A DNA stretch of 64,000 nucleotides from Escherichia coli (GTDB taxonomy: Bacteria > Pseudomonadota > Gammaproteobacteria > Enterobacterales > Enterobacteriaceae): NCBI RefSeq assembly GCF_044324785.1, contig NZ_CP172127.1; one strand, 5' to 3'. Under the pieces are notes generated by a model. It was not told the DNA's origin and did not search any database. It saw only the letters and a list, made by a program, of their open reading frames with translations. Of the stretch, positions 22,411-51,854 are shown piece by piece. The position numbers were made by a program, and so were the translations under genes. Position 1 is the first letter of the stretch. Every line of letters begins with the position of its first letter.

Positions 22411-25400
22411 TTACTTTACCTCTTGAAATTCAAATGGGAATCCAGTGAAAGGACCTTTAGGCATAATATATCTTTGATATCCATAAAGCTCACCGAGCAC
22501 TTGTAGGCTTATAGGCGCATTTGTATTCATAGAGGGGTTGTTAAACCCGCACGCCTCAAAAATCATGTTCGTTCGGCTAAAACAATTATTTAAAACAGGA
22601 AGAGGCCCGAGGTTAATAGTTTTTAGTTTTTTATTAAGGTCTATTGCCTTATTCATCATACATTGTTCTTCTTCATCTGTTGTATCTATTATCCAAATCC
22701 AGGTATCTCTGCGGGGTTGCATCTTTTTAAAATAATCAGAGACAGAGGCTCCCATCTCATCCCCAGTTCCCGAACTCATTAATCCATATCGATTTGCCGC
22801 CGCAGCATGCCCAAAAGGATTATCAGGAACGGGGCCGTTACCTATTATCATAGTACTAAGCCCTAATGGATCAACGTGTTGCACTGGATTCAGCGGATAT
22901 TGGTACAGATTCCATCCCCCCTTCAGCCCAATCGGGTCCTGGATGATATACCGCCCCTGCAACGGATCGTAGTACCGGTGACGGTTATAATACAGCCCCG
23001 ACTCCTCATCGTGTTGCTGCCCTGGCAGACGGTACGGCTGGTGCAGGTGATGCGGTTTTTCCTCATTCAGCAGGTTTCCCCACTCATCATACTCCCCGCT
23101 CCACGCCGTATTGCCGTCTTCGCTGATGAGCGCCAGCGGCAGGCCCCGGTGGTCGCAGTGGTAAAGATGAACTTTTCGCGCCGGTGTGTATTCCGGCTCC
23201 ACCTGTCTGGCCAGTTGCTCTACCGTCAGCCCGCACTGCGCAAGCCACGCCCGGCTTTCACTGCTCACGCGGTCTGCCCGGATTTCCCCCTCCAGCCTGT
23301 CCAGCATCCTCACAAGTTCTGCCGGGAACACCACACCGTGTCCGTTCTCGCTCCCTTCCTGCTGGAGCTTCTCCGCCAGGCTCCGCCGCTGCGTTTTCTC
23401 CCGCTCGCCGTTGTCTGTTTCGATGCGGATGAGTGGTGTGAAGCTTCCCGGCTCGTATACCGTCTGGATACGTGTGCTGTCGGTCTGCACCGTCGTCAGG
23501 TGGTCGCCGTCCCAGCCGTACCACGTCACCTCCGGTTTACGCGACAGCGACATCCACCCCGTCAGGTCACGTACCCGCCGCCACACCCGTTTACCCGTCC
23601 GGCGGCCCAGCGGGTCGTAGAGGTAGCGGCTCTCCACCTGCGGCTCGCCATGCTGTATCCGCGTGTAGAACACCAGGCGGTGCTGGCTGTCGTAGTGGTA
23701 GTGGTGGGTCCGCTCGTCGTCCGTCCGTATCACACCCGCCGGGATGCGGTCCGTCTTCTCCGTCAGCCTGCCGTATTCATCGTGGCGGTAGACATAGTGC
23801 GCATCCTCCGCGATGCGGTTATCCGGCCACACTGTGAGTGTACTGTCCGGGTGCAGCTCCGGGTCCGGCAGCCGGTTGCCCGCCGGGTCCGTGGCATACG
23901 GGATGCGGATGTCCAGGTCCGGTGCGAGGGTGCGCACACTCTCCAGCCTGCCCGTGGCGCTGTAGCCGTATTCCCGCGTCTGTCGCGGGCCGCTGATGCG
24001 CACCAGGTCGCCGTTGTCATTCCACCCGTAGTCACGGTCATACACCAGGCTGTTCAGGTGCTGGCTCTGTAACTGGCCTGCGGGGGTGTATGTGCTGGTC
24101 AGTTCGTATGCGGCATTACTGCCTGCCATGCTGCCGAAGCTGCGCACCGTCTCCCGGTGCAGCCTGTCCCGCGTATACTCGACCCGCGGCGTCCCGCCCA
24201 GCTTCATGCCCGCCAGGTAACCGCTGCCATACGTCAGCCACTCCACCGGCGGCAGGCTGTCCGGCGTGATGCGGTTTGCCAGCCCCTGCTCGTTGTATGC
24301 GTGTTTCGTCTCATGCTGCCACAGCAGTTCCCCCGTCTCCGGGTTCTCCACCGTCTGGCGTTCGCCGGTCAGGCGGCCTTTATCGTCATAGCCGTAGTGG
24401 ACCGCCACACGGTGGCCTTCACTGATATGGCTGAGGGTGGTTAACCACCCGTGCTCATCATACTGCCACTGCTCTGCCGGGTCGCCGTTCACCGTCCGGT
24501 GCGTGATGCGGTCTGCTTCATCGTAGTACCAGAGGATGACAAGCCCCTCATCTTCACTCTGCGTGAGTTTTCCGGTCAGGTCATAATGATAACGTTGCGT
24601 CCGCCCGTCAAAGCCGCGCTGCTGTACCAGGCGGTCCAGCGCATCGTAGCTGAAGTCGCTGTGACTGCCGTTCTCGTTGGTCAGGCTGATGACACGTCCG
24701 GCAGCATCGTACTCCATACTGCGCGTCAGCCCGCCCTGCGTGGTGCTGACCGCCTTTCCCCACGCATCGTACTGTGTCTCGCTCCGGTTGCCGTCCGGGG
24801 TGATAACGGCAGTCAGGTCGCCTGCGGCGTTGTACTCATACTGCGTTTCACGGCCCTGTGCGTCTTTCACCGAGGTTAACCGGCCACGGTTGTCATAGCG
24901 GCGGTAACGGCTGATACCTTCCTCACGGTGGACCGCCGTCATCTGACCAAAGCGGTCGTATTCATAACGGGTCTGGTAGCCCGAGCAGTCGGTGAACGCC
25001 AGCAACTGCCCGTAGCGGCTCCAGGTCATCTGCCGGGTGCTGCCCGTCGCATCCGTTGTCGTCGCCGGTAATTCACTGTGCGGATTATCATAAGCATACC
25101 GGATGACGTCCCCACTGCGCGATGTCTCCGTTACCAGCCTGCCCGGTTCATCATATGCCCGGCGGCTCTCCAGCCCGTCCGGGGACACCACTGCCGTCAC
25201 CTGGTTCCCGTCGTTATAGTAAAATTTCGTCTCCCGCCCGTCCGGTGTGGTGATGTCCGTGATATCGCCTGACACCACATTCAGACCGTACTCTGTCCGC
25301 CGTCCCGCCGCGTCCGTCTGCGCCGTAAGCCTTCCTGCCGCGTCATACCCGCTGCGCGTGACGCTGCCGTCCGCCAGTTCTTTTTTCACCACCCGTTTCA

Positions 25401-26640
25401 GCCCGCCTTCACCTTCTGTATGCAGCACCTCACGCCGGTTCAGGCTGTCCGTGACGGTGATGCGGTCCTGCTCATACTGGTAGCGGTAACTCAGGCCTGC
25501 CGGGTTCAGCTGCTCCACCACCCGCCCCGCATCGTCGTAGCGGTAGCGCATCTCCGGCCTTCCCGCGTAACGGTGCGCCACCATCCGGCCCGGGTGCTGC
25601 GCGTCATACGTGAAAGCGCGCACCTGCGTATTGCTGCGGTCATATACCGCCAGCAGTTCACCGGCTTCCGTATACGTGTACCGCGCCAGTGGCGCACCGG
25701 GCAGATTCTCCGGGTATGCCGGGTCGTACATCAGCCACACCGCTGAAAGACGGATACCCCTGTCGGGGCCGTATTCCGTACCGGGCAGTGTGTCGGGGAA
25801 AGCTGAGTCTGAAAGAGGGCGGGGGGTGTCAGGGGAAAATAAGGAAGCGGTGTGCTGTTTACGGGCCTCTTCCGCCCGCTGCGCCTGCGTGGTCAGCACC
25901 AGACGGAACTGCCGCCCGGCACCGTCCGTCACGCCGGTGATTTCCCCGGCCAGGTCACCGGCGGCCTCACGCCGGTACGCCAGCGTCCGCCCGAAGCGGT
26001 CTGCCAGCCCGGTAAGCACCCGGTACGGCGGCAGCGGCGCTGGCAGTACGTCCTCAGCACCCGGCACCCGCTCTGACCACCCCAGTATCCACCACGGCCC
26101 CTGTGCGCTGTTGGTCGCCAGGTAAAGATGCGGGCTTAACCGGATATCCGGCGGCAGCGCCCCCCACAGCCGTGCCAGCGTGTGGCCGTCCGGCTGCGCT
26201 GCCTTACCACCGCGCACCAGCCACATTGACTCGCTGCGGCTGTACACCGCCTCACCCGGCAGCAGCGGCTCAAAGTGAATGCTCCGCCCGCCGTTGTCGT
26301 TGAGTATCAGTCCGTCATCACGTAGCTGTAAGCGGATATCAGAAGGCGCTTTCCAGCCGGGGCCGAAAACGCCCACCGGCGCAGGCGTCTTCGTCCGGTA
26401 GCTGCTGTAGGTGCGGGAGAGAATGAACGGCAGCGGGCCGGGCAGCGCAAGGTCCGTCTCGCCGGGCAGCACCTTCGCCCCCAGCAGCGGATTTACCGGG
26501 TTGCCCGAAGTCATCCCGCCCGGACACACCGAGCACGCCACGCCGGTGGGCGCGCCAATTCTTACACCTGCCGAACCCTGGACAATGGGACCGCCATACT
26601 GAGTCATATCTCCCTGACGCGCCGCTGGTTTTCCGCTCAT
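22411..26640 (-). CDS. PAAR-domain Rhs polymorphic toxin (T6SS effector) with AT-rich C-terminal tip of unknown family
   Basis: 1409-aa ORF. N-terminus [31 protein letters not shown] (PAAR-like); long YD-repeat core; the Rhs core ends at DPLGL and is followed by about 150 aa ([25 protein letters not shown]...EFQEVK) encoded by conspicuously AT-rich DNA. Confidence 0.88.
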
Positions 26641-26706: not shown

Positions 26707-28815
26707 TCAGTACTCTCTCATATCCGGCGTATCCTGCTTTTCATCAGGGGTCTTCGGTGGGGATTTCGAGGCTGCACAGTTCCAGTTAATCAACAGTGAG
26801 TCACCATTAACCTGCTCCTTACCCTGCAAATGAATTTTTGTGCCGTTGAGAAAAATTTGTCCGTCCTTAGTCAGCACCAGCCTTGCCTTACCACAGCAGA
26901 GTTCCAGATGCTCACCGGCGGAGTAAATCGCGGTCTGCCCGGTATCATCCTTTTTCGTTTTACCAACGGTGAAGGTAACGTTATTTCCGACTTTGACGTC
27001 ATAACCCAGCCCGACCCTCAACGATTTATGCAAACCGATCTGCGAGGACTGCATCAGGGCCACCGAGGTGTTCATAATGCCACCTACCGTCGTCTGATAC
27101 GCCACGCCCACAGTCAGCGCACGCACAAGTCCAATCGTTTCCACCTGAACAGAGCCCACTTTAATGATCTGGTTACTGCCCACCGTCTCTATCTGGTTAA
27201 CACCCACCGTCTGTATCTGATTGTTGGTAACCGCAATCATCTGATTGTTGCCAATGGTCTCAGCATGGTTGTTTATCACATCCGTGGTGCGGTTATTCAG
27301 CACCTCGGTGTTCATATTCTTCTGCGCGTGGATGTAGACCTGTTCTTTCCCTGTCGCATCGTCAAACTTCAGTTCATTAAACCCGCTGCCCTTATAGGTT
27401 TTCGAACGAATGGTCATCTGCGTCTTTGTTCCCGGCAGGCTGCCGGGGGTGCGGTTTTCCTGGTGGTAGGTACGCCCCATAATAATCGGCTGGTCCGGAT
27501 CGCCGTTGAGGAAGTCCACAATGACTTCCTGACCCACACGCGGTATCGCCAGGTTGCCAAAGCCGGTGCCTGCCCACGCCTGTGCCACACGGATCCAGCA
27601 TGAACTGTCCTGGTTTGACGGGTTATAGCGGTCCCAGTTAAATTTCACCCGCACGCGGCCATGTTCATCACAGAAGATTTCTTCTCCTGCCGGTCCCGTC
27701 ACGACGGCGCTCTGCGGGCCGTCCACCAGCGGTTTCAGCAACGGCTGTGGCCGCCATGTCCGGTCTGCCGGTATTACCGCAAAGTGGTTATTCAGCGTGG
27801 TACCTGAACCCCTGCGTCCCGGCACCGCCTGCGGCTGCTCGCCGTGCAGTTCACTTGCCACCACCTGCCATTCCCGGTTCAGGCTCGCCTGCGGATGCCC
27901 CGTCAGCGCAATTCGCCGTCCCGGCCATATCTCCGGCGAACGGCTTGTTCCGCGCGCCACTTCTGCGTTGTTTCGCCAGCCATCCATCTGCCAGCAGGCA
28001 AAGTTCTGCCCGTGGGCACCCTTGAAACGTCCGGGGTAGTCATACACTTCATACTGTGTGCGCTGGTAATCCTGGTGCTGGCCTTCCTGATCAAAACGCC
28101 CTGCCCAGCCGGGTCGTTTAAAGGTGTAGTCTTTGGTCACCACGGAAGATGGGCGGATTTGTGCGCTGTAGCGGAACTGGCTGATGCAGAGGGTGCTCAC
28201 CTCGGTACGGGTGTTCGGATTCCAGGGGATCTCAAAGGACTCCGGCAGATAACGCACGGTGTCGCACAGGACCAGGCTCTGGTCGGTACTTTTTTGCGCG
28301 TGCTCCTCATAAAAGAAGATGCCTTCCTCCGCCGCCATCCGGCACAGGAAATCGTAATCAGTTTCGCCGTACTGGACACAAAACTCACGGGAAGGATGCG
28401 GCTCGCTGAACAGCGGACTCCACTCGGTCACCCCGTTTTCTTTCAGGATCGTCGCGAGGATGCTTTCGATGTCCTCATTCTGGAAGATACGGAAGTTCTG
28501 GCGCAGCCCTGTGCGCCACAGCGGTGGGCACACCTTCATGCTGTACAGCATCTGGTTTTTGTCGTTCTCCCCCAGTTCAAACCAGGTCACCACACCTTTC
28601 ACCCGGCGCTGTACGTCATCGCCCTGCCATACCGTCAGGTAGGCCATTTTGTCCAGCACCTGCGCAAATTCAAGGGAGAGAAACTGCTGGCTGACCAGAG
28701 AGAGATCGAGGGAAAAGAGCGAAGAGAGTGACTGGTTCAGATGAAAGGAGACCACCGCAAACGTGTCCGGTGGCAGGCCGTCCACTTCCAGCGTGAAACG
28801 TAATCCGGTTGACAT
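26707..28815 (-). CDS. vgrG: T6SS spike protein VgrG (TssI)
   Basis: 702-aa ORF MSTGLRFTLEVDGLPPDTFAVVSFHLNQSLSSLFSLDLSLVS... with gp27/gp5-like regions and a C-terminal repetitive beta segment. Confidence 0.9.
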   Translation of the reverse strand: MSTGLRFTLEVDGLPPDTFAVVSFHLNQSLSSLFSLDLSLVSQQFLSLEFAQVLDKMAYLTVWQGDDVQRRVKGVVTWFELGENDKNQMLYSMKVCPPLWRTGLRQNFRIFQNEDIESILATILKENGVTEWSPLFSEPHPSREFCVQYGETDYDFLCRMAAEEGIFFYEEHAQKSTDQSLVLCDTVRYLPESFEIPWNPNTRTEVSTLCISQFRYSAQIRPSSVVTKDYTFKRPGWAGRFDQEGQHQDYQRTQYEVYDYPGRFKGAHGQNFACWQMDGWRNNAEVARGTSRSPEIWPGRRIALTGHPQASLNREWQVVASELHGEQPQAVPGRRGSGTTLNNHFAVIPADRTWRPQPLLKPLVDGPQSAVVTGPAGEEIFCDEHGRVRVKFNWDRYNPSNQDSSCWIRVAQAWAGTGFGNLAIPRVGQEVIVDFLNGDPDQPIIMGRTYHQENRTPGSLPGTKTQMTIRSKTYKGSGFNELKFDDATGKEQVYIHAQKNMNTEVLNNRTTDVINNHAETIGNNQMIAVTNNQIQTVGVNQIETVGSNQIIKVGSVQVETIGLVRALTVGVAYQTTVGGIMNTSVALMQSSQIGLHKSLRVGLGYDVKVGNNVTFTVGKTKKDDTGQTAIYSAGEHLELCCGKARLVLTKDGQIFLNGTKIHLQGKEQVNGDSLLINWNCAASKSPPKTPDEKQDTPDMREY

Positions 28816-28977
28816 AGCAACCTCCGGGTTTAAGGAAAAACAGACAGTTCGCTGTTAAAGCGGCTGTGACAGTACAGTGTTACGCTTGCGTTCAGGCACG
28901 CTACCGCCGAAGTTTCCGGCATCCGCCATCTCCCGTGAACGTACCCCCTTACTGACAACCTTTCTTTTTACGGCGTA

Positions 28978-29014
28978 ATACAAAAACAGCATCCGGCCTG
29001 ATAGCCGGATGCTG
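28978..29014 (-). terminator. Rho-independent terminator/attenuator between hcp and vgrG
   Basis: Perfect inverted repeat cagcatccggc-ctgata-gccggatgctg immediately downstream of the hcp stop; on the minus strand it is followed by TTTTTTG. Confidence 0.5.
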
Positions 29015-29024
29015 TTGGCTTAAC

Positions 29025-29543
29025 TTATGCTTCCAGCGGTGCGCGCCAGTCGTCGGCACCAGAGGTGCCAGACTTGACGTGTTCCCACTCTATTTTGCGG
29101 TAGGCCAGTGAAACTTCGAGCAACTGGGTGAACTCGCGTTTCGCCGGATCCTGGCAATGCGGCATATGCAGTTTCATATCGACAATCGTCGAATCGGTCA
29201 GGCGGGTGGTGAAATAATGCTCCTGTTTGCCTTCCACAGAGGTACGCCACCAGTGAAGTTCAGTGGTTGGCAGCATTTCGCCGGAGGCCAGTGCGTTGTA
29301 CATCAGCGGAACAGCTTTGTTCAGCGCCACGGTAAAAATGAACGGCTTGTGAGCACGCTGACCCGCAGGCTGGCCGGACTGAGGATCTGTCGGGACAGTA
29401 ACGTTATGCAGGAATTCCTGCACCAGCATCTCGTCTTCGTGCCCCTGCACATAGATGTTGCCGACAGAATCAGCGGTAAATGCACCTGCAGTAATATTTC
29501 CCTGGGTCTGACCAGTGATGGAGATATAACACGGTGTTGGCAT
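29025..29543 (-). CDS. hcp: T6SS tube protein Hcp (TssD)
   Basis: 172-aa ORF MPTPCYISITGQTQGNITAGAFTADSVGNIYVQGHEDEMLVQEF..., Hcp1 family. Confidence 0.9.
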   Translation of the reverse strand: MPTPCYISITGQTQGNITAGAFTADSVGNIYVQGHEDEMLVQEFLHNVTVPTDPQSGQPAGQRAHKPFIFTVALNKAVPLMYNALASGEMLPTTELHWWRTSVEGKQEHYFTTRLTDSTIVDMKLHMPHCQDPAKREFTQLLEVSLAYRKIEWEHVKSGTSGADDWRAPLEA

Positions 29544-30239
29544 TTGTAAACTCCTTGTTAACGTGGTTAATTACTACTTACAATGACCTGCCGTTAATCC
29601 CAGACAGGCAGATGCAGCTCACTTCACGGAACCGCATCATTTTTCAGTATTTTTTACATACAAACCGAGCTAGAATTTACGGTTGTCGTAAAAACTATTT
29701 TTAAAATCATTAAATCTCTTATTCAGCAATAACTTAATAATATATATCTGGATAACCATACCCAACTGTTCAAAGTCCGTATTGCCTCCATAAAATGGCC
29801 AAAACTGAATCATGAATAAATATTGTATTTATCCTTTATGAATTATCATTTTGATAATTTTTGAGATATTCCTTAAAAATACCCACTTAATCAATCACAA
29901 AACAAATATATAAACAAGCAATCATCAGATTAGCTTATGTTTAATGAAATTATTGTATAATTCAATAAGTTATATAAAAACTCTATATTTAAATTATTGC
30001 CATAATACACCTGACGCGAATTGCAAAGGTTCACACAATCTATTTAACGCTTGCAGAATACCCCTCTTTACGATCGATAAAAAGTCCTTTTCTTATTTAT
30101 TTTGAAGCGTAGAATGCGGGGTGATGAAGGAGTGGTGATTTTATTTTCACCGCCATTAGGGCGGCATTGCCGATATTTTTTTGCGGTACAAATATGCCGT
30201 GTTCATGGCCTGTACGAGATAACATGACGGATCACTTTT
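29544..30239. promoter_or_regulatory. AT-rich divergent control region between hcp (minus) and tssB (plus)
   Basis: About 700 bp non-coding and very AT-rich; contains a Fur-box-like motif aattatcattttgataatt (29841-29859) and a GATC site near 30072. Confidence 0.45.
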
Positions 30240-30740
30240 ATGAGCAAAAAATTTGAAGGCAGCGTCGCGCCTCGCGAGCGTATAAATATATCCTATGTCC
30301 CGAAGACAGACGGCCAGACGGCTGAAGTGGAGCTTCCGCTTAACATGCTCGTTGTCGGCGATACCGGAAATACGCAGGAGACATCCCCACTGGATGAACG
30401 TCAGGCAGTTTCCGTTAACAAGCACAATTTCGGTGCGGTGATGGCTGAAGCAGCCATTGGCCTCAATTTTACCGTCCCCGCCACGCTGAAGGGAAGCACA
30501 ACGGACGATGAACTGAATGTGGCGCTGAATATCAAATCACTGGATGATTTTTCACCAGATAGCGTGGCCCGGCAGGTTCCGGAAGTGAATAAATTGCTGG
30601 AACTGCGTGAAGCACTGACTGCACTGAAGGGGCCGATGGGTAACCTTCCGGCATTCCGTACCCAGCTCCAGGCATTGCTGGAAAATGAAGAGTCCCGCGA
30701 GCAGTTGCTCAAAGAAATCGGCCGGGTGAGCAATAAATAA
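30240..30740 (+). CDS. tssB: T6SS contractile sheath small subunit TssB (VipA/ImpB)
   Basis: 166-aa ORF MSKKFEGSVAPRERINISYVPKTDGQTAEVELPLNMLVVGD... Confidence 0.9.
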   Translation: MSKKFEGSVAPRERINISYVPKTDGQTAEVELPLNMLVVGDTGNTQETSPLDERQAVSVNKHNFGAVMAEAAIGLNFTVPATLKGSTTDDELNVALNIKSLDDFSPDSVARQVPEVNKLLELREALTALKGPMGNLPAFRTQLQALLENEESREQLLKEIGRVSNK

Positions 30741-30774
30741 CCACCACTATTTCATTAAACAGGGTTATCCAGGC

Positions 30775-30999
30775 ATGACGGCACACAAAAATATCTCCGG
30801 GACATACCACCTCTCTGTTGCAGACATTCTGCAGGTGGTTTACCAGGTATGTTTCAGCCCGTCCGTTGAAATCAACCAGGATGGTGTGGCTGCGCTGATT
30901 ACAACACTGGATCGCCGTATCAGTGATCTATTGGATGAGATTATCCATTTTTGTGAGTTTCAGCAGAGCGCGTCGCACTGGCAGCGCGTACTTCACTGA
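30775..30999 (+). CDS. Small ORF resembling the TssC N-terminal region (possible gene remnant or accessory mini-protein)
   Basis: 74-aa ORF; ...NQDGVAALITTLDRRISDLLDEIIHFCEFQQSASHWQRV aligns with TssC residues ...NKLAVDSMIADIDERISRQMDVIIHAPAFQQVESFWRSL from the adjacent tssC. Confidence 0.4.
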   Translation: MTAHKNISGTYHLSVADILQVVYQVCFSPSVEINQDGVAALITTLDRRISDLLDEIIHFCEFQQSASHWQRVLH

Positions 31000-48276: not shown

Positions 48277-49626
48277 ATGAATAGTAACGTACTGACACAA
48301 ACTATCGTTACCGGCAGTGACCCGCGCGGGCTGCCGGAATTCAGCGCCATTCGCGAGGAAATAAACAAAGCCAGCCACCCGTCACAGCCTGAGCTGAACT
48401 GGAAACTGGTGGAGTCGCTGGCGCTGGCGATTTTTAAAGCTAACGGTGTGGATTTACACACCGCCACCTACTATACGCTTGCACGGACACGGACACAGGG
48501 ACTGGCGGGATTCTGCGAAGGTGCGGAACTGCTGGCGGCAATGGTAAGCCACGACTGGGATAAGTTCTGGCCACAGGGCGGTCCGGCGCGTACTGAAATG
48601 CTGGACTGGTTTAACTCCCGAACCGGCAATATTCTGCGTCAGCAAATCTCCTTTGCGGAATCCGACCTACCACTGATCTACCGCACAGAGCGGGCATTGC
48701 AGCTTATCTGCGACAAGCTCCAGCAGGTAGAGCTGAAGCGCGTTCCTCGTGTGGAGAATCTGCTCTATTTTATGCAGAACACGCGTAAACGGCTTGAACC
48801 CCAGCCGAAGAGTAACGCAGAGAACGCCGCACAGACCACAGTCAGAACGCTGATTTATGCCCCGGAAACACCGGCATCTTCCACACCAGAAACGGTAGTG
48901 CCTCCCCTGCCCGACCTGCCTGAGATGAAAGTGGAAGTGCGCAGTCTGACAGAGAATCCCCCACAGGCCAGTGTGATAAAGCAAGGCAGTACGGTAAGAG
49001 GGTTTATCGCAGGGATCGTCTGTTCAGTGGCTGTCGCCTCAGCATTGTGGTGGTGGCTGGTCTATCCGGTGCAGCAGCAACTGTTACAGGTTAACGACAC
49101 CGCTCAGGGCGCGGCAACGGTGTGGATGGCCTCACCTGAACTCGAAAACTATGAGCGCAGGCTGCAACAACTTCTTGATACCTCCCCGGTACAGCCGCTG
49201 GAAACCGGGATGCAGATGATGCGTGTTGCCGACAGTCGCTGGCCGGAAAGCCTGCAACAGCAGCAGGCCTCGACACAATGGAATGAGGCACTCAAAACCC
49301 GCGCACAGAGTAGCCCACAGTTGCGCGGCTGGTTGCAGACCCGCCAGGACTTACATGCTTTTGCTGATCTCGTGATGCAGCGCGAGAAAGAGGGATTAAC
49401 CCTTTCCTATATCAAAAATGTCATCTGGCAGGCGGAGCGGGGACTGGGGCAGGAAACACCTCTGGAATCCCTGCTGACGCAGTACCAGGATGCCCGTGCG
49501 CAGAAGCAGAATACAGATGCGCTGGAAAAACAGATTAACGAGCGGATGGACGGCGTGTTAAGTCGCTGGCTGCTGCTGAAGAATAATACGATACCGACGA
49601 TAAAAAAAGACATTGAATTTCAATAA
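48277..49626 (+). CDS. T6SS accessory protein with ImpA-N-like domain and central TM helix (VasL-like)
   Basis: Start at MNSNVLTQTIV (48277, 10 nt after the tssM stop). N-terminal region GSDPRGLPEFSAIREEINKASHP...WNSVE... resembles ImpA_N; hydrophobic helix GFIAGIVCSVAVASALWWWLVY; same position as V. cholerae vasL. Confidence 0.65.
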   Translation: MNSNVLTQTIVTGSDPRGLPEFSAIREEINKASHPSQPELNWKLVESLALAIFKANGVDLHTATYYTLARTRTQGLAGFCEGAELLAAMVSHDWDKFWPQGGPARTEMLDWFNSRTGNILRQQISFAESDLPLIYRTERALQLICDKLQQVELKRVPRVENLLYFMQNTRKRLEPQPKSNAENAAQTTVRTLIYAPETPASSTPETVVPPLPDLPEMKVEVRSLTENPPQASVIKQGSTVRGFIAGIVCSVAVASALWWWLVYPVQQQLLQVNDTAQGAATVWMASPELENYERRLQQLLDTSPVQPLETGMQMMRVADSRWPESLQQQQASTQWNEALKTRAQSSPQLRGWLQTRQDLHAFADLVMQREKEGLTLSYIKNVIWQAERGLGQETPLESLLTQYQDARAQKQNTDALEKQINERMDGVLSRWLLLKNNTIPTIKKDIEFQ

Positions 49627-49652
49627 CATTCATGAATACAAAGGAGCTTTAA

Positions 49653-50132
49653 ATGGCGAATTTAATTTATTTAACACTAAATGGTGATAATCAAGGGCTC
49701 ATTTCAAGTGGTTGTTCATCACAACCATCCATTGGAAATAAAGCTCAAACAGCACACATTGATCAAATTATGATTTATGAATTCATGCATGGATTAAATC
49801 GAGATCAAAACGTCAACCATCATCATTTGACAATAAAAAAACCTATAGATAAAGCATCACCCTTATTAGGTAAAGCAATTTGCGACAATGAATTATTGAC
49901 ATGTGATTTTTCCTTTTATCGTACAAATAAATTTGGAATTAATGAACTGTACTATAAAATCAAATTAACTGGAGCAAAGATAAGCGACATTCATGTCTCT
50001 ATATCACATATTGTTGTTGATAACAGCGTTCAACCCGAAGAGTCAGTTTCTTTCAGTTATGAGTCAATTATATGGGAGCATTGTTCCGCTGGCACTAGTG
50101 CATACAGTTTATGGGAAGATCGTCTTCTTTAA
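49653..50132 (+). CDS. Divergent second Hcp (Hcp-family tube protein paralog) in an AT-rich module
   Basis: 159-aa ORF with aaggag RBS; MANLIYLTLNGDNQGLISSGCSSQPSIGN... and ...WEHCSAGTSAYSLWED align with the main Hcp (MPTPCYISITGQTQGNITAGAFTADSVGN..., ...WEHVKSGTSGADDW); the DNA is visibly much more AT-rich. Confidence 0.75.
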   Translation: MANLIYLTLNGDNQGLISSGCSSQPSIGNKAQTAHIDQIMIYEFMHGLNRDQNVNHHHLTIKKPIDKASPLLGKAICDNELLTCDFSFYRTNKFGINELYYKIKLTGAKISDIHVSISHIVVDNSVQPEESVSFSYESIIWEHCSAGTSAYSLWEDRLL

Positions 50133-50152
50133 AAATATCTGGGATTATTATA

Positions 50153-51049
50153 ATGGCTAACAATATTTTACACTCTTCAACATCAGACAGTGAAAGCAAA
50201 AATACAAGCACTGACAGTACGTTATTTAATGAAAAATTCCCATTTCGATTAAGGCAAGATTTCGCATCAAGAATAACAGAAGATGAAAGTGATTTTTTTA
50301 AATGGAAAAAAATAAGAGAGTTGGCAATTGTGAGCAATCATAAAGAATGGAATAAATATGACTTATTAATTTCAAAATCTGTTAATGAAATCAACATTCA
50401 TTTGTCCAGCACTCCATACTTTCAGCCGTTGGATTGGTATATAATAAAAGCCATGCTCTGGACTGAAAACGATGCGGCAAATACTTCTCAGTGGAATGGT
50501 TATCCATTACAAATTGGTCGTTTTCGGAAAGATAAAGCGATGCCTGCTTTAATCTCTGGTGAAAAATCCACAGCCCTTGTTACCCCACCACAATGGAGAA
50601 ACAAAGCATTCAATGGGTTAAAAGATCCAGAAAGAAATTACTGGGCAAAAGAACAAATAACTGGCTCTCCAGAAGAGAATGTCAAAGCAGCAATTACTTA
50701 CTTAATGATGAAACTTTCTAATACAAAGGAAGAATCAACTATCGATCAATATGACTCAACTCTATATAGCGCCATTGTCCAAAAAGGCGATTTGGCTGAC
50801 AACATCAGAAAAGAGAGAAAAACGACCATACCTAACTTAACGAAAAACAACCCTGGAAAAAATCTCGATAAAATACACCCGGGAGATATTTTATATTATC
50901 AAAAAGCATCCATGAAAGTAATAATTACTGGATGGAAACCTATCACAATAAAAAATGTAGCGATGAATTATAATGGTGGTGGAGATCCCAAGTATGCAAT
51001 AAAACTTCAGTTCGTTTATACATTGCTCACAAAAAACAGAGTGTTATGA
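50153..51049 (+). CDS. Candidate T6SS effector, cysteine-free, possibly cell-wall-targeting
   Basis: About 298 aa (ORF track 50111..51049); AT-rich; directly downstream of hcp2 and upstream of a secreted small protein. Weak SLT/lysozyme-like motif spacing (LWTENDAANTSQWNGYPLQI ... AMNYNGGGDP), not verified. Confidence 0.5.
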   Translation: MANNILHSSTSDSESKNTSTDSTLFNEKFPFRLRQDFASRITEDESDFFKWKKIRELAIVSNHKEWNKYDLLISKSVNEINIHLSSTPYFQPLDWYIIKAMLWTENDAANTSQWNGYPLQIGRFRKDKAMPALISGEKSTALVTPPQWRNKAFNGLKDPERNYWAKEQITGSPEENVKAAITYLMMKLSNTKEESTIDQYDSTLYSAIVQKGDLADNIRKERKTTIPNLTKNNPGKNLDKIHPGDILYYQKASMKVIITGWKPITIKNVAMNYNGGGDPKYAIKLQFVYTLLTKNRVL

Positions 51050-51501
51050 GAATGGGAAAAATAACAATTATTCTACTGCTTACATTCTCATGTACAAAAG
51101 GTCTGGCATTTGACATTTCCATGTCTAAAGAATGTAGTGGCGTTGATGAACTTGAATTTGTTGATTGTGTTAAAAACTCATTTATTATGAGCACTATTAC
51201 ACTTAAAAAAGCAGAAGCAAATATAAAAGAGAAAATTAAAAAATGGAATAACGATGAGGACGAAGCAATAAGAAAAGAAGCAGTTATTTCTTTAAAAAGA
51301 CTAGAATCTTCTAATCGGGAATTTATACGTTACAGATTTGCTCAATGCTCTTTTGCTCTAACCTGGGGGGCCAGAGTAGGACGCCTGGCATTCTCTCGAC
51401 TATATCCATGCTATACTGAGTTAAACAAAATAAGAGCCATGCAACTAAACAATGCTTACATTTCAGATTTTCAAAATCCAGATGAGATATCCAGCAAATG
51501 A
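51046..51501 (+). CDS. Candidate periplasmic immunity protein (small, Cys-containing, signal peptide)
   Basis: 151-aa ORF overlapping the effector stop (ATGA); signal peptide MRMGKITIILLLTFSCTKGLA; six Cys; resemblance to LprI/DUF1311-like proteins is recalled but unverified. Confidence 0.5.
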   Translation: MRMGKITIILLLTFSCTKGLAFDISMSKECSGVDELEFVDCVKNSFIMSTITLKKAEANIKEKIKKWNNDEDEAIRKEAVISLKRLESSNREFIRYRFAQCSFALTWGARVGRLAFSRLYPCYTELNKIRAMQLNNAYISDFQNPDEISSK

Positions 51502-51854
51502 TTATTATAAAATTAAGATTAACATTACTATTTATACTGGCCACAATTACATATTCAGTACAATCAGACGAATTCGATGATCAAACCACTTACACGCAAT
51601 ACCGTTATTTTTCCACAGCCATACCAGAAGATATACGTAGATTTATGTTCTACGTAGATTTGTGCTTTGTAGATTTAGCATTCGATATCGAAACTGACTC
51701 AATGACAGCTAAAAATGATATTATTAATGAATGTACCCCATTAAAAGAAAGAAACAAAACATTAAAAGAAAAATATAAAAAAGATGAAGAGATAATAGCA
51801 ATTCTTTCCATTGCAGATGATACCATTTTAATTTATGAAGAATTAAAAAAATAA
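51498..51854 (+). CDS. Second small secreted protein (possible additional or orphan immunity protein)
   Basis: 118-aa ORF overlapping the previous stop; signal peptide MIIIKLRLTLLFILATITYSVQS; AT-rich. Confidence 0.4.
   Translation: MIIIKLRLTLLFILATITYSVQSDEFDDQTTYTQYRYFSTAIPEDIRRFMFYVDLCFVDLAFDIETDSMTAKNDIINECTPLKERNKTLKEKYKKDEEIIAILSIADDTILIYEELKK

Follow-up and report, generated by a model that had tools for sequence, protein, structure and literature searches.

The stretch of Escherichia coli DNA that we analyzed, 64,000 nucleotides in length and called the window here, holds a complete T6SS cluster. Its two divergent transcription units are separated by a gap that open reading frames and Pfam matches define as 696 bp of non-coding DNA, at exactly the coordinates first proposed for it. 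To one side lies hcp, followed by vgrG and rhs, and to the other tssB, followed rightward on the plus strand by tssC, tssE, tssF and the rest of the cluster (Table 1). The GC content of the gap is 32.8%, against 51.9% for the window, and the initial annotation of the region as about 700 bp of AT-rich non-coding DNA between two divergent T6SS units is borne out.

Table 1. Genes, sequence elements and candidate promoters at the hcp-tssB junction (positions in the window)
Feature	Position	Strand	Basis or remark
rhs	22411-26640	-	After vgrG
vgrG	26707-28815	-	After hcp
hcp	29025-29543	-	Pfam T6SS_HCP, E = 5e-31; first gene of the hcp-vgrG-rhs unit
hcp-tssB intergenic region, bidirectional promoter region ("t6sP") of E. 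coli T6SS-2	29544-30239	.	ORFs, Pfam, genome occurrence
AT-rich core, likely H-NS-bound tract	29700-30050	.	25.6% GC; H-NS motif matches; H-NS dependence from the literature
Central block of raised cross-genus conservation	29799-29858	.	Sliding identity 0.56-0.69, against a gap mean of 0.52
Candidate hcp-directed sigma-70 promoter	29822-29849	-	Consensus scans; -35 ATGATA (29849-29844), 16 nt, -10 TACAAT (29827-29822)
Palindrome AATTATCA-TTT-TGATAATT, proposed Fur box	29841-29859	.	Fur matrix 4.7 bits; chance level
Most conserved tssB-proximal block, AGAATACCCCTCTTT ... AAAAAGTnCTTTTC ... GTAGAAT	30054-30118	.	Identity 0.62-0.66
GATC nearest the palindrome	30072-30075	.	213 bp away
Candidate tssB core promoter	30088-30115	+	Alignment column; -35 TTTTCT (30088-30093), 16 nt, -10 TAGAAT (30110-30115)
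Inferred tssB 5' leader (~118 nt)	30122-30239	+	Folds better than shuffles, z = -2.8
Second GATC, just upstream of the tssB ATG	30230-30233	.	371 bp from the palindrome
tssB (VipA)	30240-30740	+	Pfam T6SS_VipA, E = 1e-51; heads the structural operon

The locus is the E. coli T6SS-2 on the aspV island. It has the divergent hcp and tssB genes, the gene order, the gap length (635-705 bp across the variants) and the aspV-yafV island of that system; relatives carry the cluster between aspV and yafV/ivy/fadE. Of 5426 complete E. coli genomes, 2235 have the same gap (type A), once each and at 95-99.4% identity, O157:H7 and O104:H4 among them. The O157:H7 gap is 97% identical and equal in length, and its counterpart in Sakai spans 263438-264133, between ECs0233 (tssB) and ECs0234 (hcp). 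The same hcp/gap/tssB layout recurs in a B2-type variant (type B; UPEC F11, EAEC 042), with a gap of 702-705 bp, and in a rarer variant (type C; strain 21AR0303), with a gap of 682 bp. The arrangement is also that of E. albertii, Citrobacter youngae and Yokenella regensburgei, where the gaps are 635-645 bp. The 705-bp B2-type gap aligns with the present one at its ends only, and the TssB protein encoded beside it is about 55% identical. Two small ORFs within the gap (47 aa on the minus strand, 53 aa on the plus strand) were considered as coding and rejected, because the longer one spans a hot spot of indels and SNPs (29944-30043) and because the cross-genus alignments contain non-triplet gaps. 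A scan of 29000-30800 against Rfam at E <= 1 returned no RNA family.

AT content well above that of the surroundings, as looked for in an H-NS-controlled promoter, is found in the gap as a whole and more strongly in its core (Table 1). Measured over 200-bp intervals, GC content reaches its minimum, 19.5%, at 29800-29999. The H-NS motif used for scoring, TCGATAAATT, is said to be that of Lang et al. 2007. With up to two mismatches allowed, it is matched four times in the 696 bp and 77 times in the 64 kb, an enrichment that largely reflects AT content. Three of the matches (29787, 29851 and 29962) lie in the AT-rich core, with the last one at 30074. The right arm of the palindrome supplies one of these matches, agreeing with the motif at 8 of 10 positions. 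Scoring for H-NS motifs, as the initial annotation proposed, fits with H-NS binding, though the motif density is largely a matter of AT content.

In EHEC EDL933, T6SS-2 is nearly silent, and deletion of hns raises the z0264 transcript 60-fold, which complementation reverses (PMC5363993). A 2026 paper, in which the gap is named t6sP, reports that hcp3 and tssB mRNA and t6sP reporter activity all rise in an EHEC hns mutant, and that no medium activates either t6sP promoter in wild-type EHEC (PMC13141884). Binding of H-NS to the hcp-tssB gap is attributed to Wan 2017 and Kim et al. 2022, as these are cited in that paper. The EHEC hns mutant produced larger amounts of T6SS protein when grown in DMEM or modified M9, which are poor in iron (PMC13141884). 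Inactivation of hns in APEC likewise raises clpV2, hcp2A and hcp2B (PMC5874247), and the S. sonnei homologue shows the same behavior (PMC10924462). The divergent units, hcp-vgrG-rhs and tssB...tssM-hcp, are almost off in culture, and hns deletion de-represses both. To read a divergent, H-NS-silenced promoter region here is correct, and this is already known for EHEC (PMC5363993, PMC13141884) and APEC (PMC5874247). Mechanistically, H-NS would coat the 25%-GC core and spread from there over the promoters.

Conservation within the gap was examined in an alignment of seven orthologous gaps; the TssB contig scan gave four loci, and footprinting drew on six non-redundant sequences. Cross-genus conservation peaks at both gap ends, at 29799-29843 and at 30054-30113, and drops at 29754-29798 and 29979-30053. 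Variation within type A is unevenly spread as well: among nine sequences there are 37 variable columns, 20 of which fall in the hypervariable stretch 29944-30043, and positions 30044-30093 show zero variation. Within the tssB-proximal block, a NarL/NarP heptamer, TACCCCT (30059-30065), fits TACYYMT by eye in five of the seven orthologues. NarL/NarP sites were also predicted by the EHEC authors, who found no inducing condition (PMC13141884).

Only one sigma-70-like match, that at 30088-30115, shares an alignment column in all seven orthologous gaps. Its -10 hexamer is TAGAAT here and TAAAAT in most strains. From its position we infer a tssB start near 30122 and a leader of about 118 nt, so that the tssB operon would begin at a weak sigma-70 promoter. 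The sigma-70 scan suggested earlier yields this one conserved tssB-directed match. In all, the gap holds 6 promoter-like hits, which does not exceed what shuffles give (3.8 +/- 1.9). On the hcp strand, no promoter-like site scores well in all gaps. Transcription of hcp would be driven by one or more promoters on the opposite strand, and in one candidate the -35 is formed by the palindrome's left arm; at the aligned place, type C carries GTGACA-16-TATAAT. A sigma-54 promoter (TGGCAC-N5-TTGC) in the tssB-proximal block was rejected by eye, the GG/GC spacing fitting type C only. The T6SS cluster is without a VasH-type activator. In the putative tssB leader, GYTCATGGCCTG (30201-30212) is conserved and complementary to the AUGAGC start region, with weak covariation support. 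A conserved RNA structure for the leader was rejected, the consensus fold being weak (-6.1 kcal/mol) and made mostly of invariant pairs. Also rejected was an attenuator hairpin, CGGC-ATT-GCCG followed by T7, which the alignment shows is not conserved, and an intrinsic terminator scan of the plus strand of the leader found none.

The palindrome at 29841-29859, aattatcattttgataatt / AATTATCATTTTGATAATT, had drawn attention as a Fur-box-like motif. The string is there, and it is a perfect inverted repeat with 8-bp arms and a 3-nt spacer, but its resemblance to a Fur box is at chance level. Perfect inverted repeats with arms of at least 8 bp arise in 20% of gap shuffles. For scoring we used a 19-bp symmetric Fur matrix derived from 16 footprinted or gel-shifted MG1655 sites, with coordinates from Chen et al. 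2007 (PMC2189734) and sequences from NC_000913.3. Its values agree well with published ones (gpmA 27.5 vs 27.4, ryhB 25.1 vs 25.2, sodA 23.5 vs 23.3 bits), and the leave-one-out scores of the 16 proven sites have a mean of 19.8 bits and a minimum of 8.6. The motif itself scores 4.7 bits. The best frame anywhere in the gap reaches 8.1 bits at 29838-29856; dinucleotide-preserving shuffles of the gap have a mean maximum of 9.7 bits, and 8.13 bits is attained in 66% of the shuffles. The 64-kb window has nine sites with scores of 8.13 bits or higher. Against the classical Fur consensus the motif matches 12 of 19 positions, and 91.5% of dinucleotide shuffles contain a match as good or better.

The company that the motif keeps does not improve this picture. 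Footprinted E. coli Fur regions are clusters of overlapping sites whose strongest member scores about 11.5 bits or more (Chen 2007 Table 3, PMC2189734); the only positive frames around the motif score 8.1, 4.7, 4.3 and 1.7 bits, and no member of such strength is present. Across the whole gap there are 24 positive frames against 15.5 expected, a slight excess that 3% of shuffles reach. The 8.1-bit frame requires A29838; O157:H7, O104:H4 and four other type-A strains have C at this position, and their maximum is 7.0 bits. The motif lies 390 bp from the tssB ATG. It is about 272 bp upstream of the start proposed for the only conserved promoter, and it overlaps the -35-like hexamer of the candidate hcp-directed promoter. 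Judged by its letters, the motif does not rise above local composition, and it resembles a Fur box no more closely than chance would allow.

Orthologues point the same way. Although the palindrome is unchanged in eight of the nine type-A sequences compared, and its mean identity (0.61) exceeds that of the gap (0.52), among Escherichia variants only the right arm (TTGATAA) is kept. The left arm reads AATCTCA in E. albertii, AATTGTCA in type C and ATTATCG in a 99%-identical Citrobacter MAG; type B carries a 10-bp insertion there, and the arm is altered in C. youngae and Yokenella too. Only the TA of GATAA is invariant. The dyad, which a Fur operator would be expected to conserve, is thus not conserved in orthologues, and the Fur-matrix maxima of six orthologous gaps fall at non-homologous positions. 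The palindrome would be no Fur operator, just AT-rich sequence of the kind that chance gives, and H-NS-preferred DNA and/or promoter -35 sequence is probably the better description of it.

Fur occupancy and the response to fur deletion have been measured genome-wide. Gao et al. 2023 (PMC10164565) combined Fur ChIP-exo, in M9 with 0.1 mM FeCl2 or 0.2 mM dipyridyl, with RNA-seq of fur deletions in nine strains. In the four T6SS-2 carriers checked there is no Fur ChIP-exo peak in the gap, iron-replete or iron-starved. The flanking peaks are P10 (193075) and P11 (288115) in Sakai (type A; gap 263438-264133), P9 (190105) and P10 (358916) in W (type A; gap 260316-261012), P15 (233934) and P16 (286589) in the type-A W derivative KO11FL (gap at about 260-261 kb by collinearity with W), and P8 (194612) and P9 (329858) in 042 (type B; gap 263117-263818). 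T6SS-2 locus tags are absent from the peak lists and from the 469-gene pan-regulon. Expression in the W fur deletion relative to wild type changes little: the log2 fold changes are 0.94 for tssB (p = 0.19), 0.66 for hcp (p = 0.18), 0.25 for tssC (p = 0.51), -0.03 for vgrG (p = 0.97) and 0.01 for rhs (p = 0.97), on about 1-23 normalised counts for each gene. The first genes, hcp and tssB, drift up 1.6-1.9-fold, which is not significant; for core Fur genes the change is about log2 5-10 in those strains whose values are shown (PMC10164565). In APEC, clpV2 and hcp2B are not regulated by iron limitation or Fur, and T6SS1 is Fur-controlled (Ma et al. 2018, PMC5874247). De-repression in a fur mutant or in low iron, the mark of a Fur operator, is therefore seen neither in the W RNA-seq nor in the APEC qRT-PCR. 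Iron and Fur control of the T6SS-2 promoter, as first proposed, finds no backing in occupancy or in expression.

These data have a defined reach. The proven sci1 fur1 box (TATAATGATCAAAATTAAA) gets no more than 5.2 bits from this matrix, and so a weak score says that the motif is not above chance, which is no proof that Fur cannot bind. Similarly, the ChIP-exo tables, which record no Fur occupancy in the gap, also miss the proven sci1 site: the sci1 promoter is absent from the 042 list, indicating that weak sites are missed by the method. Because sci1 fur1 is weak in the one and unlisted in the other, a weak site could escape both matrix and ChIP-exo. The APEC result likely comes from a B2-type locus, to judge by the matching operon order, and the gap of that type is without the palindrome. 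Moreover, in wild-type backgrounds a Fur effect could be hidden by H-NS silencing. The residual chance of a weak, H-NS-masked Fur site is small.

Three other accounts of the palindrome and its surroundings deserve consideration. The one that survives best, while still unlikely, holds that the palindrome and the block at 29799-29858 are promoter DNA and/or the operator of another dimeric regulator, with the two arms serving as back-to-back -35 hexamers. Scans do place a -35/-10 pair on each strand at the palindrome (ATGATA/TACAAT on the minus strand, TTGATA/AAAAAT on the plus strand). The strong GTGACA-16-TATAAT of type C stands at the aligned position, a conservation peak covers 29799-29843, and several start sites in the gap are credited to Kim et al. 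2022, as cited in PMC13141884. However, promoter-like hits in the gap are no more numerous than in shuffles, as noted above. The hcp-strand candidate passes a relaxed threshold in only four of the six non-redundant gaps, weakly in two of them, and the plus-strand cluster near 29853 is built from non-equivalent hexamers. Starts at the palindrome would also require 5' UTRs of about 270-350 nt.

Far less probable is that the palindrome acts as a weak Fur operator of the sci1 kind beneath H-NS silencing, blocking the hcp-directed -35 and becoming visible once H-NS is relieved. What lends it some appeal is that the proven sci1 boxes, fur1 and fur2, are themselves poor matches (13/19 and 11/19), with fur1 at 5.2 bits set against 4.7-8.1 for the present candidate. 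The left arm coincides with a -35-like hexamer, and the palindrome is retained in all but one of the nine type-A sequences. T6SS proteins of the EHEC hns mutant rise in iron-poor DMEM and MM9, and hcp and tssB show the small, non-significant rise in the W fur mutant. Yet the match is at chance level, its symmetry is lost in E. albertii, type B, type C and the Citrobacter MAG, and the 8.1-bit frame is absent in O157:H7 and O104:H4. ChIP-exo gives zero peaks in three type-A strains under both iron conditions, and the W fur mutant shows no significant change. Predictions of transcription factor sites for the gap by two groups contain no Fur site, and low-iron media do not induce wild-type EHEC.

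In its broader form, this account would make the whole weak Fur-like cluster at 29809-29868 a real low-affinity Fur site in H-NS-bound DNA, active once H-NS is lifted, to which we give marginally less credence still. Fur is an antagonist of H-NS at ftnA. If the cluster were such a site, it might repress the hcp-directed promoter through the left-arm -35, or it might antagonise H-NS. It could then explain the extra T6SS protein that the EHEC hns mutant makes in iron-poor DMEM/M9, and it would constitute a second regulatory layer that escapes standard ChIP-exo and the transcriptomes of fur mutants in otherwise wild-type backgrounds.

The last account, a Fur/Dam epigenetic ON-OFF switch of the EAEC sci1 type operating in the hcp-tssB gap, has virtually no chance of being right: it draws on the analogy with sci1 (PMC3145626) and on the two GATC sites in the gap and nothing else, whereas the sci1 GATC lies inside the Fur box and beside the -10, those here are 213 and 371 bp off, and GATC positions differ among the three E. 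coli variants. The initial annotation had placed a GATC site near the motif. None overlaps it, the sites at 30072 and 30230 being the only two in the gap, and neither lies inside or abutting a Fur box and core promoter as such a switch would demand. For the motif proposed, a Fur/Dam switch is already refuted at the level of sequence, and T6SS-2 would operate with no Dam/Fur switch.

We consider it probable that a single explanation covers these observations: the region is a bidirectional regulatory region, silenced by H-NS, with promoters as inferred above, a palindrome that is no Fur operator, and no control by Fur, iron or Dam. The Fur/Dam hypothesis fails every test that was possible, namely those of chance matching, GATC placement, dyad conservation, occupancy and expression. 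T6SS-2 would accordingly be expected to run independently of iron and Fur. Taken together, the sequence, its conservation and the published genome-wide data speak against iron and Fur as its missing signal. About 40% of complete E. coli genomes carry T6SS-2, EHEC O157:H7, O104:H4 and Shigella sonnei among them, and its activating signal has eluded several groups; ruling out candidate controls saves effort. Mutagenesis could be aimed instead at the promoter-like element at 30088-30115, at the conserved blocks 29799-29858 and 30054-30118, and at the hypervariable stretch 29944-30043.

The gap represents no new kind of system, its H-NS-silenced promoter region being already known. Its closest counterpart is the t6sP of EHEC O157:H7 EDL933 and Sakai (z0264 tssB / hcp3; ECs0233/ECs0234), which is the same locus, with the same flanking genes and chromosomal neighborhood. 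That region is silent in vitro, loss of hns de-represses it, and attempts to find an inducing condition have come up empty. It differs from the present gap at about 3% of positions, including C at A29838 and a -10 of TAAAAT where TAGAAT is found here, and strains also vary in the effector cargo downstream of vgrG. The T6SS2 of APEC TW-XM (hcp2B-vgrG2 / vipA2...hcp2A; Ma et al. 2018) has the same divergent architecture and the same pattern as T6SS-2, with repression by H-NS and no regulation by iron limitation or Fur. Its order hcp-vgrG-DUF2169-PAAR effector matches the B2-type (F11, L014), an assignment of variant that is judged by gene order.

The precedent invoked for iron and Dam control is sound in itself: an iron- and Dam-controlled E. 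coli T6SS promoter does exist, that of EAEC sci1 (PMC3145626), but sci1 is T6SS-1, a different cluster. There, too, a promoter upstream of tssB carries weak matches to the Fur consensus (11-13 of 19), and Fur binding at two boxes (13/19 and 11/19) was proven by FURTA and EMSA (Brunet et al. 2011, PMC3145626). The sci1 promoter is one-directional, however, whereas the present gap is bidirectional. Its fur1 box, 77 bp from the ATG, overlaps the -10 and has GATC-I inside it; the motif here is without a GATC and far from the tssB ATG, and published data show no Fur occupancy or effect. The sci1 Fur/Dam model should therefore not be carried over to T6SS-2. In Salmonella, the clpV promoter of SPI-6 is reported to be Fur-repressed as well, a control for which T6SS-2 gives no evidence. 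SPI-6 and other enterobacterial T6SS clusters are described as horizontally acquired, with AT-rich regulatory DNA, and silenced by H-NS, and in this respect the hcp-tssB gap resembles them.

Across the variants and genera compared (loci L013, L014 and L016-L019), Hcp is 94-100% identical, whereas TssB identity ranges from 55 to 99%. The hcp-tssB intergenic region may therefore hold an old recombination boundary that separates a conserved hcp module from structural operons that have diverged. The 74-aa ORF between tssB and tssC is labelled a hypothetical protein in the annotation of strains carrying the gap variant found here, type A (ECs0232 in Sakai, ECW_RS01180 in W); no counterpart is found in the B2-type and type-C clusters, where only about 20 bp separate tssB from tssC. 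Among nine type-A gap sequences, the first 150 bp adjoining hcp show zero variation, and 20 of the 37 variable columns, 1-2 bp indels at 29975 among them, fall in one hypervariable stretch, the same place where conservation across genera is lowest.

Two stretches fold better than shuffled sequences, with z = -2.8 for the inferred tssB leader and z = -2.3 for the hcp-proximal 143 nt. In the tssB leader, the conserved segment GYTCATGGCCTG is complementary to the AUGAGC start-codon region of tssB (30240-30245), and could therefore sequester the start codon. Such sequestration would agree with reports of increased tssB mRNA in the absence of TssB protein. The fold has weak support from covariation (consensus -6.1 kcal/mol, most pairs being invariant).

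Three copies of the hexamer ATACCC lie in the gap, at 29758, 29879 and 30058. The third copy sits in the most conserved block of the gap, as TACCCCT, some 55-60 bp upstream of where tssB transcription is inferred to begin, and this sequence fits the NarL/NarP heptamer TACYYMT in five of seven orthologues.

Matches to the Fur matrix, built from 16 proven MG1655 sites, also occur elsewhere. In the E. albertii gap, ATTAAAAATACTTATCAAT (L017 1048-1066), centred 263 bp upstream of tssB, scores 18.2 bits, within the range of real Fur sites. The sole positive frame near the aligned position in the window scores 2.6 bits, and 5% of shuffles of the E. albertii gap reach 15 bits; ATTAAAAATACTTATCAAT may be either a chance match or a lineage-specific Fur site. 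The top scores of the whole window, 9.1-11.8 bits, cluster at 49600-51750 and 55880-56900, distant from the T6SS promoter. A Fur effect is hinted at only by RNA-seq of an E. coli W fur mutant, in which the first gene of each divergent operon (ECW_RS01185 and ECW_RS01195) rose non-significantly (1.6-1.9-fold, p = 0.18-0.19) at very low counts, while the genes downstream of them were unchanged (PMC10164565, Dataset 3).

Features in and around the hcp-tssB region, with high Fur-matrix matches elsewhere in the window
Feature	Position	Strand	Description
hcp-vgrG spacer	28816-29024		209 bp
Hairpin	28985-29016	-	14-bp stem including 8 G-C pairs, then U-run
hcp-proximal stretch	29538-29680	-
Invariant stretch	29544-29693
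21-mer with ATACCC	29753-29773
21-mer with ATACCC	29874-29894
Hypervariable stretch	29944-30043
TACCCCT	30059-30065
Inferred tssB leader	30118-30245	+
GYTCATGGCCTG	30201-30212
74-aa ORF	30775-30999	+	between tssB and tssC
Fur-matrix match	50146-50164		11.5 bits
Fur-matrix match	50384-50402		11.8 bits

At the other end of hcp, the spacer that separates it from vgrG contains a hairpin 9 nt beyond the hcp stop codon. This hairpin agrees with the terminator or mRNA-stabilising hairpin of EHEC named 'h3R region I' (PMC13141884).
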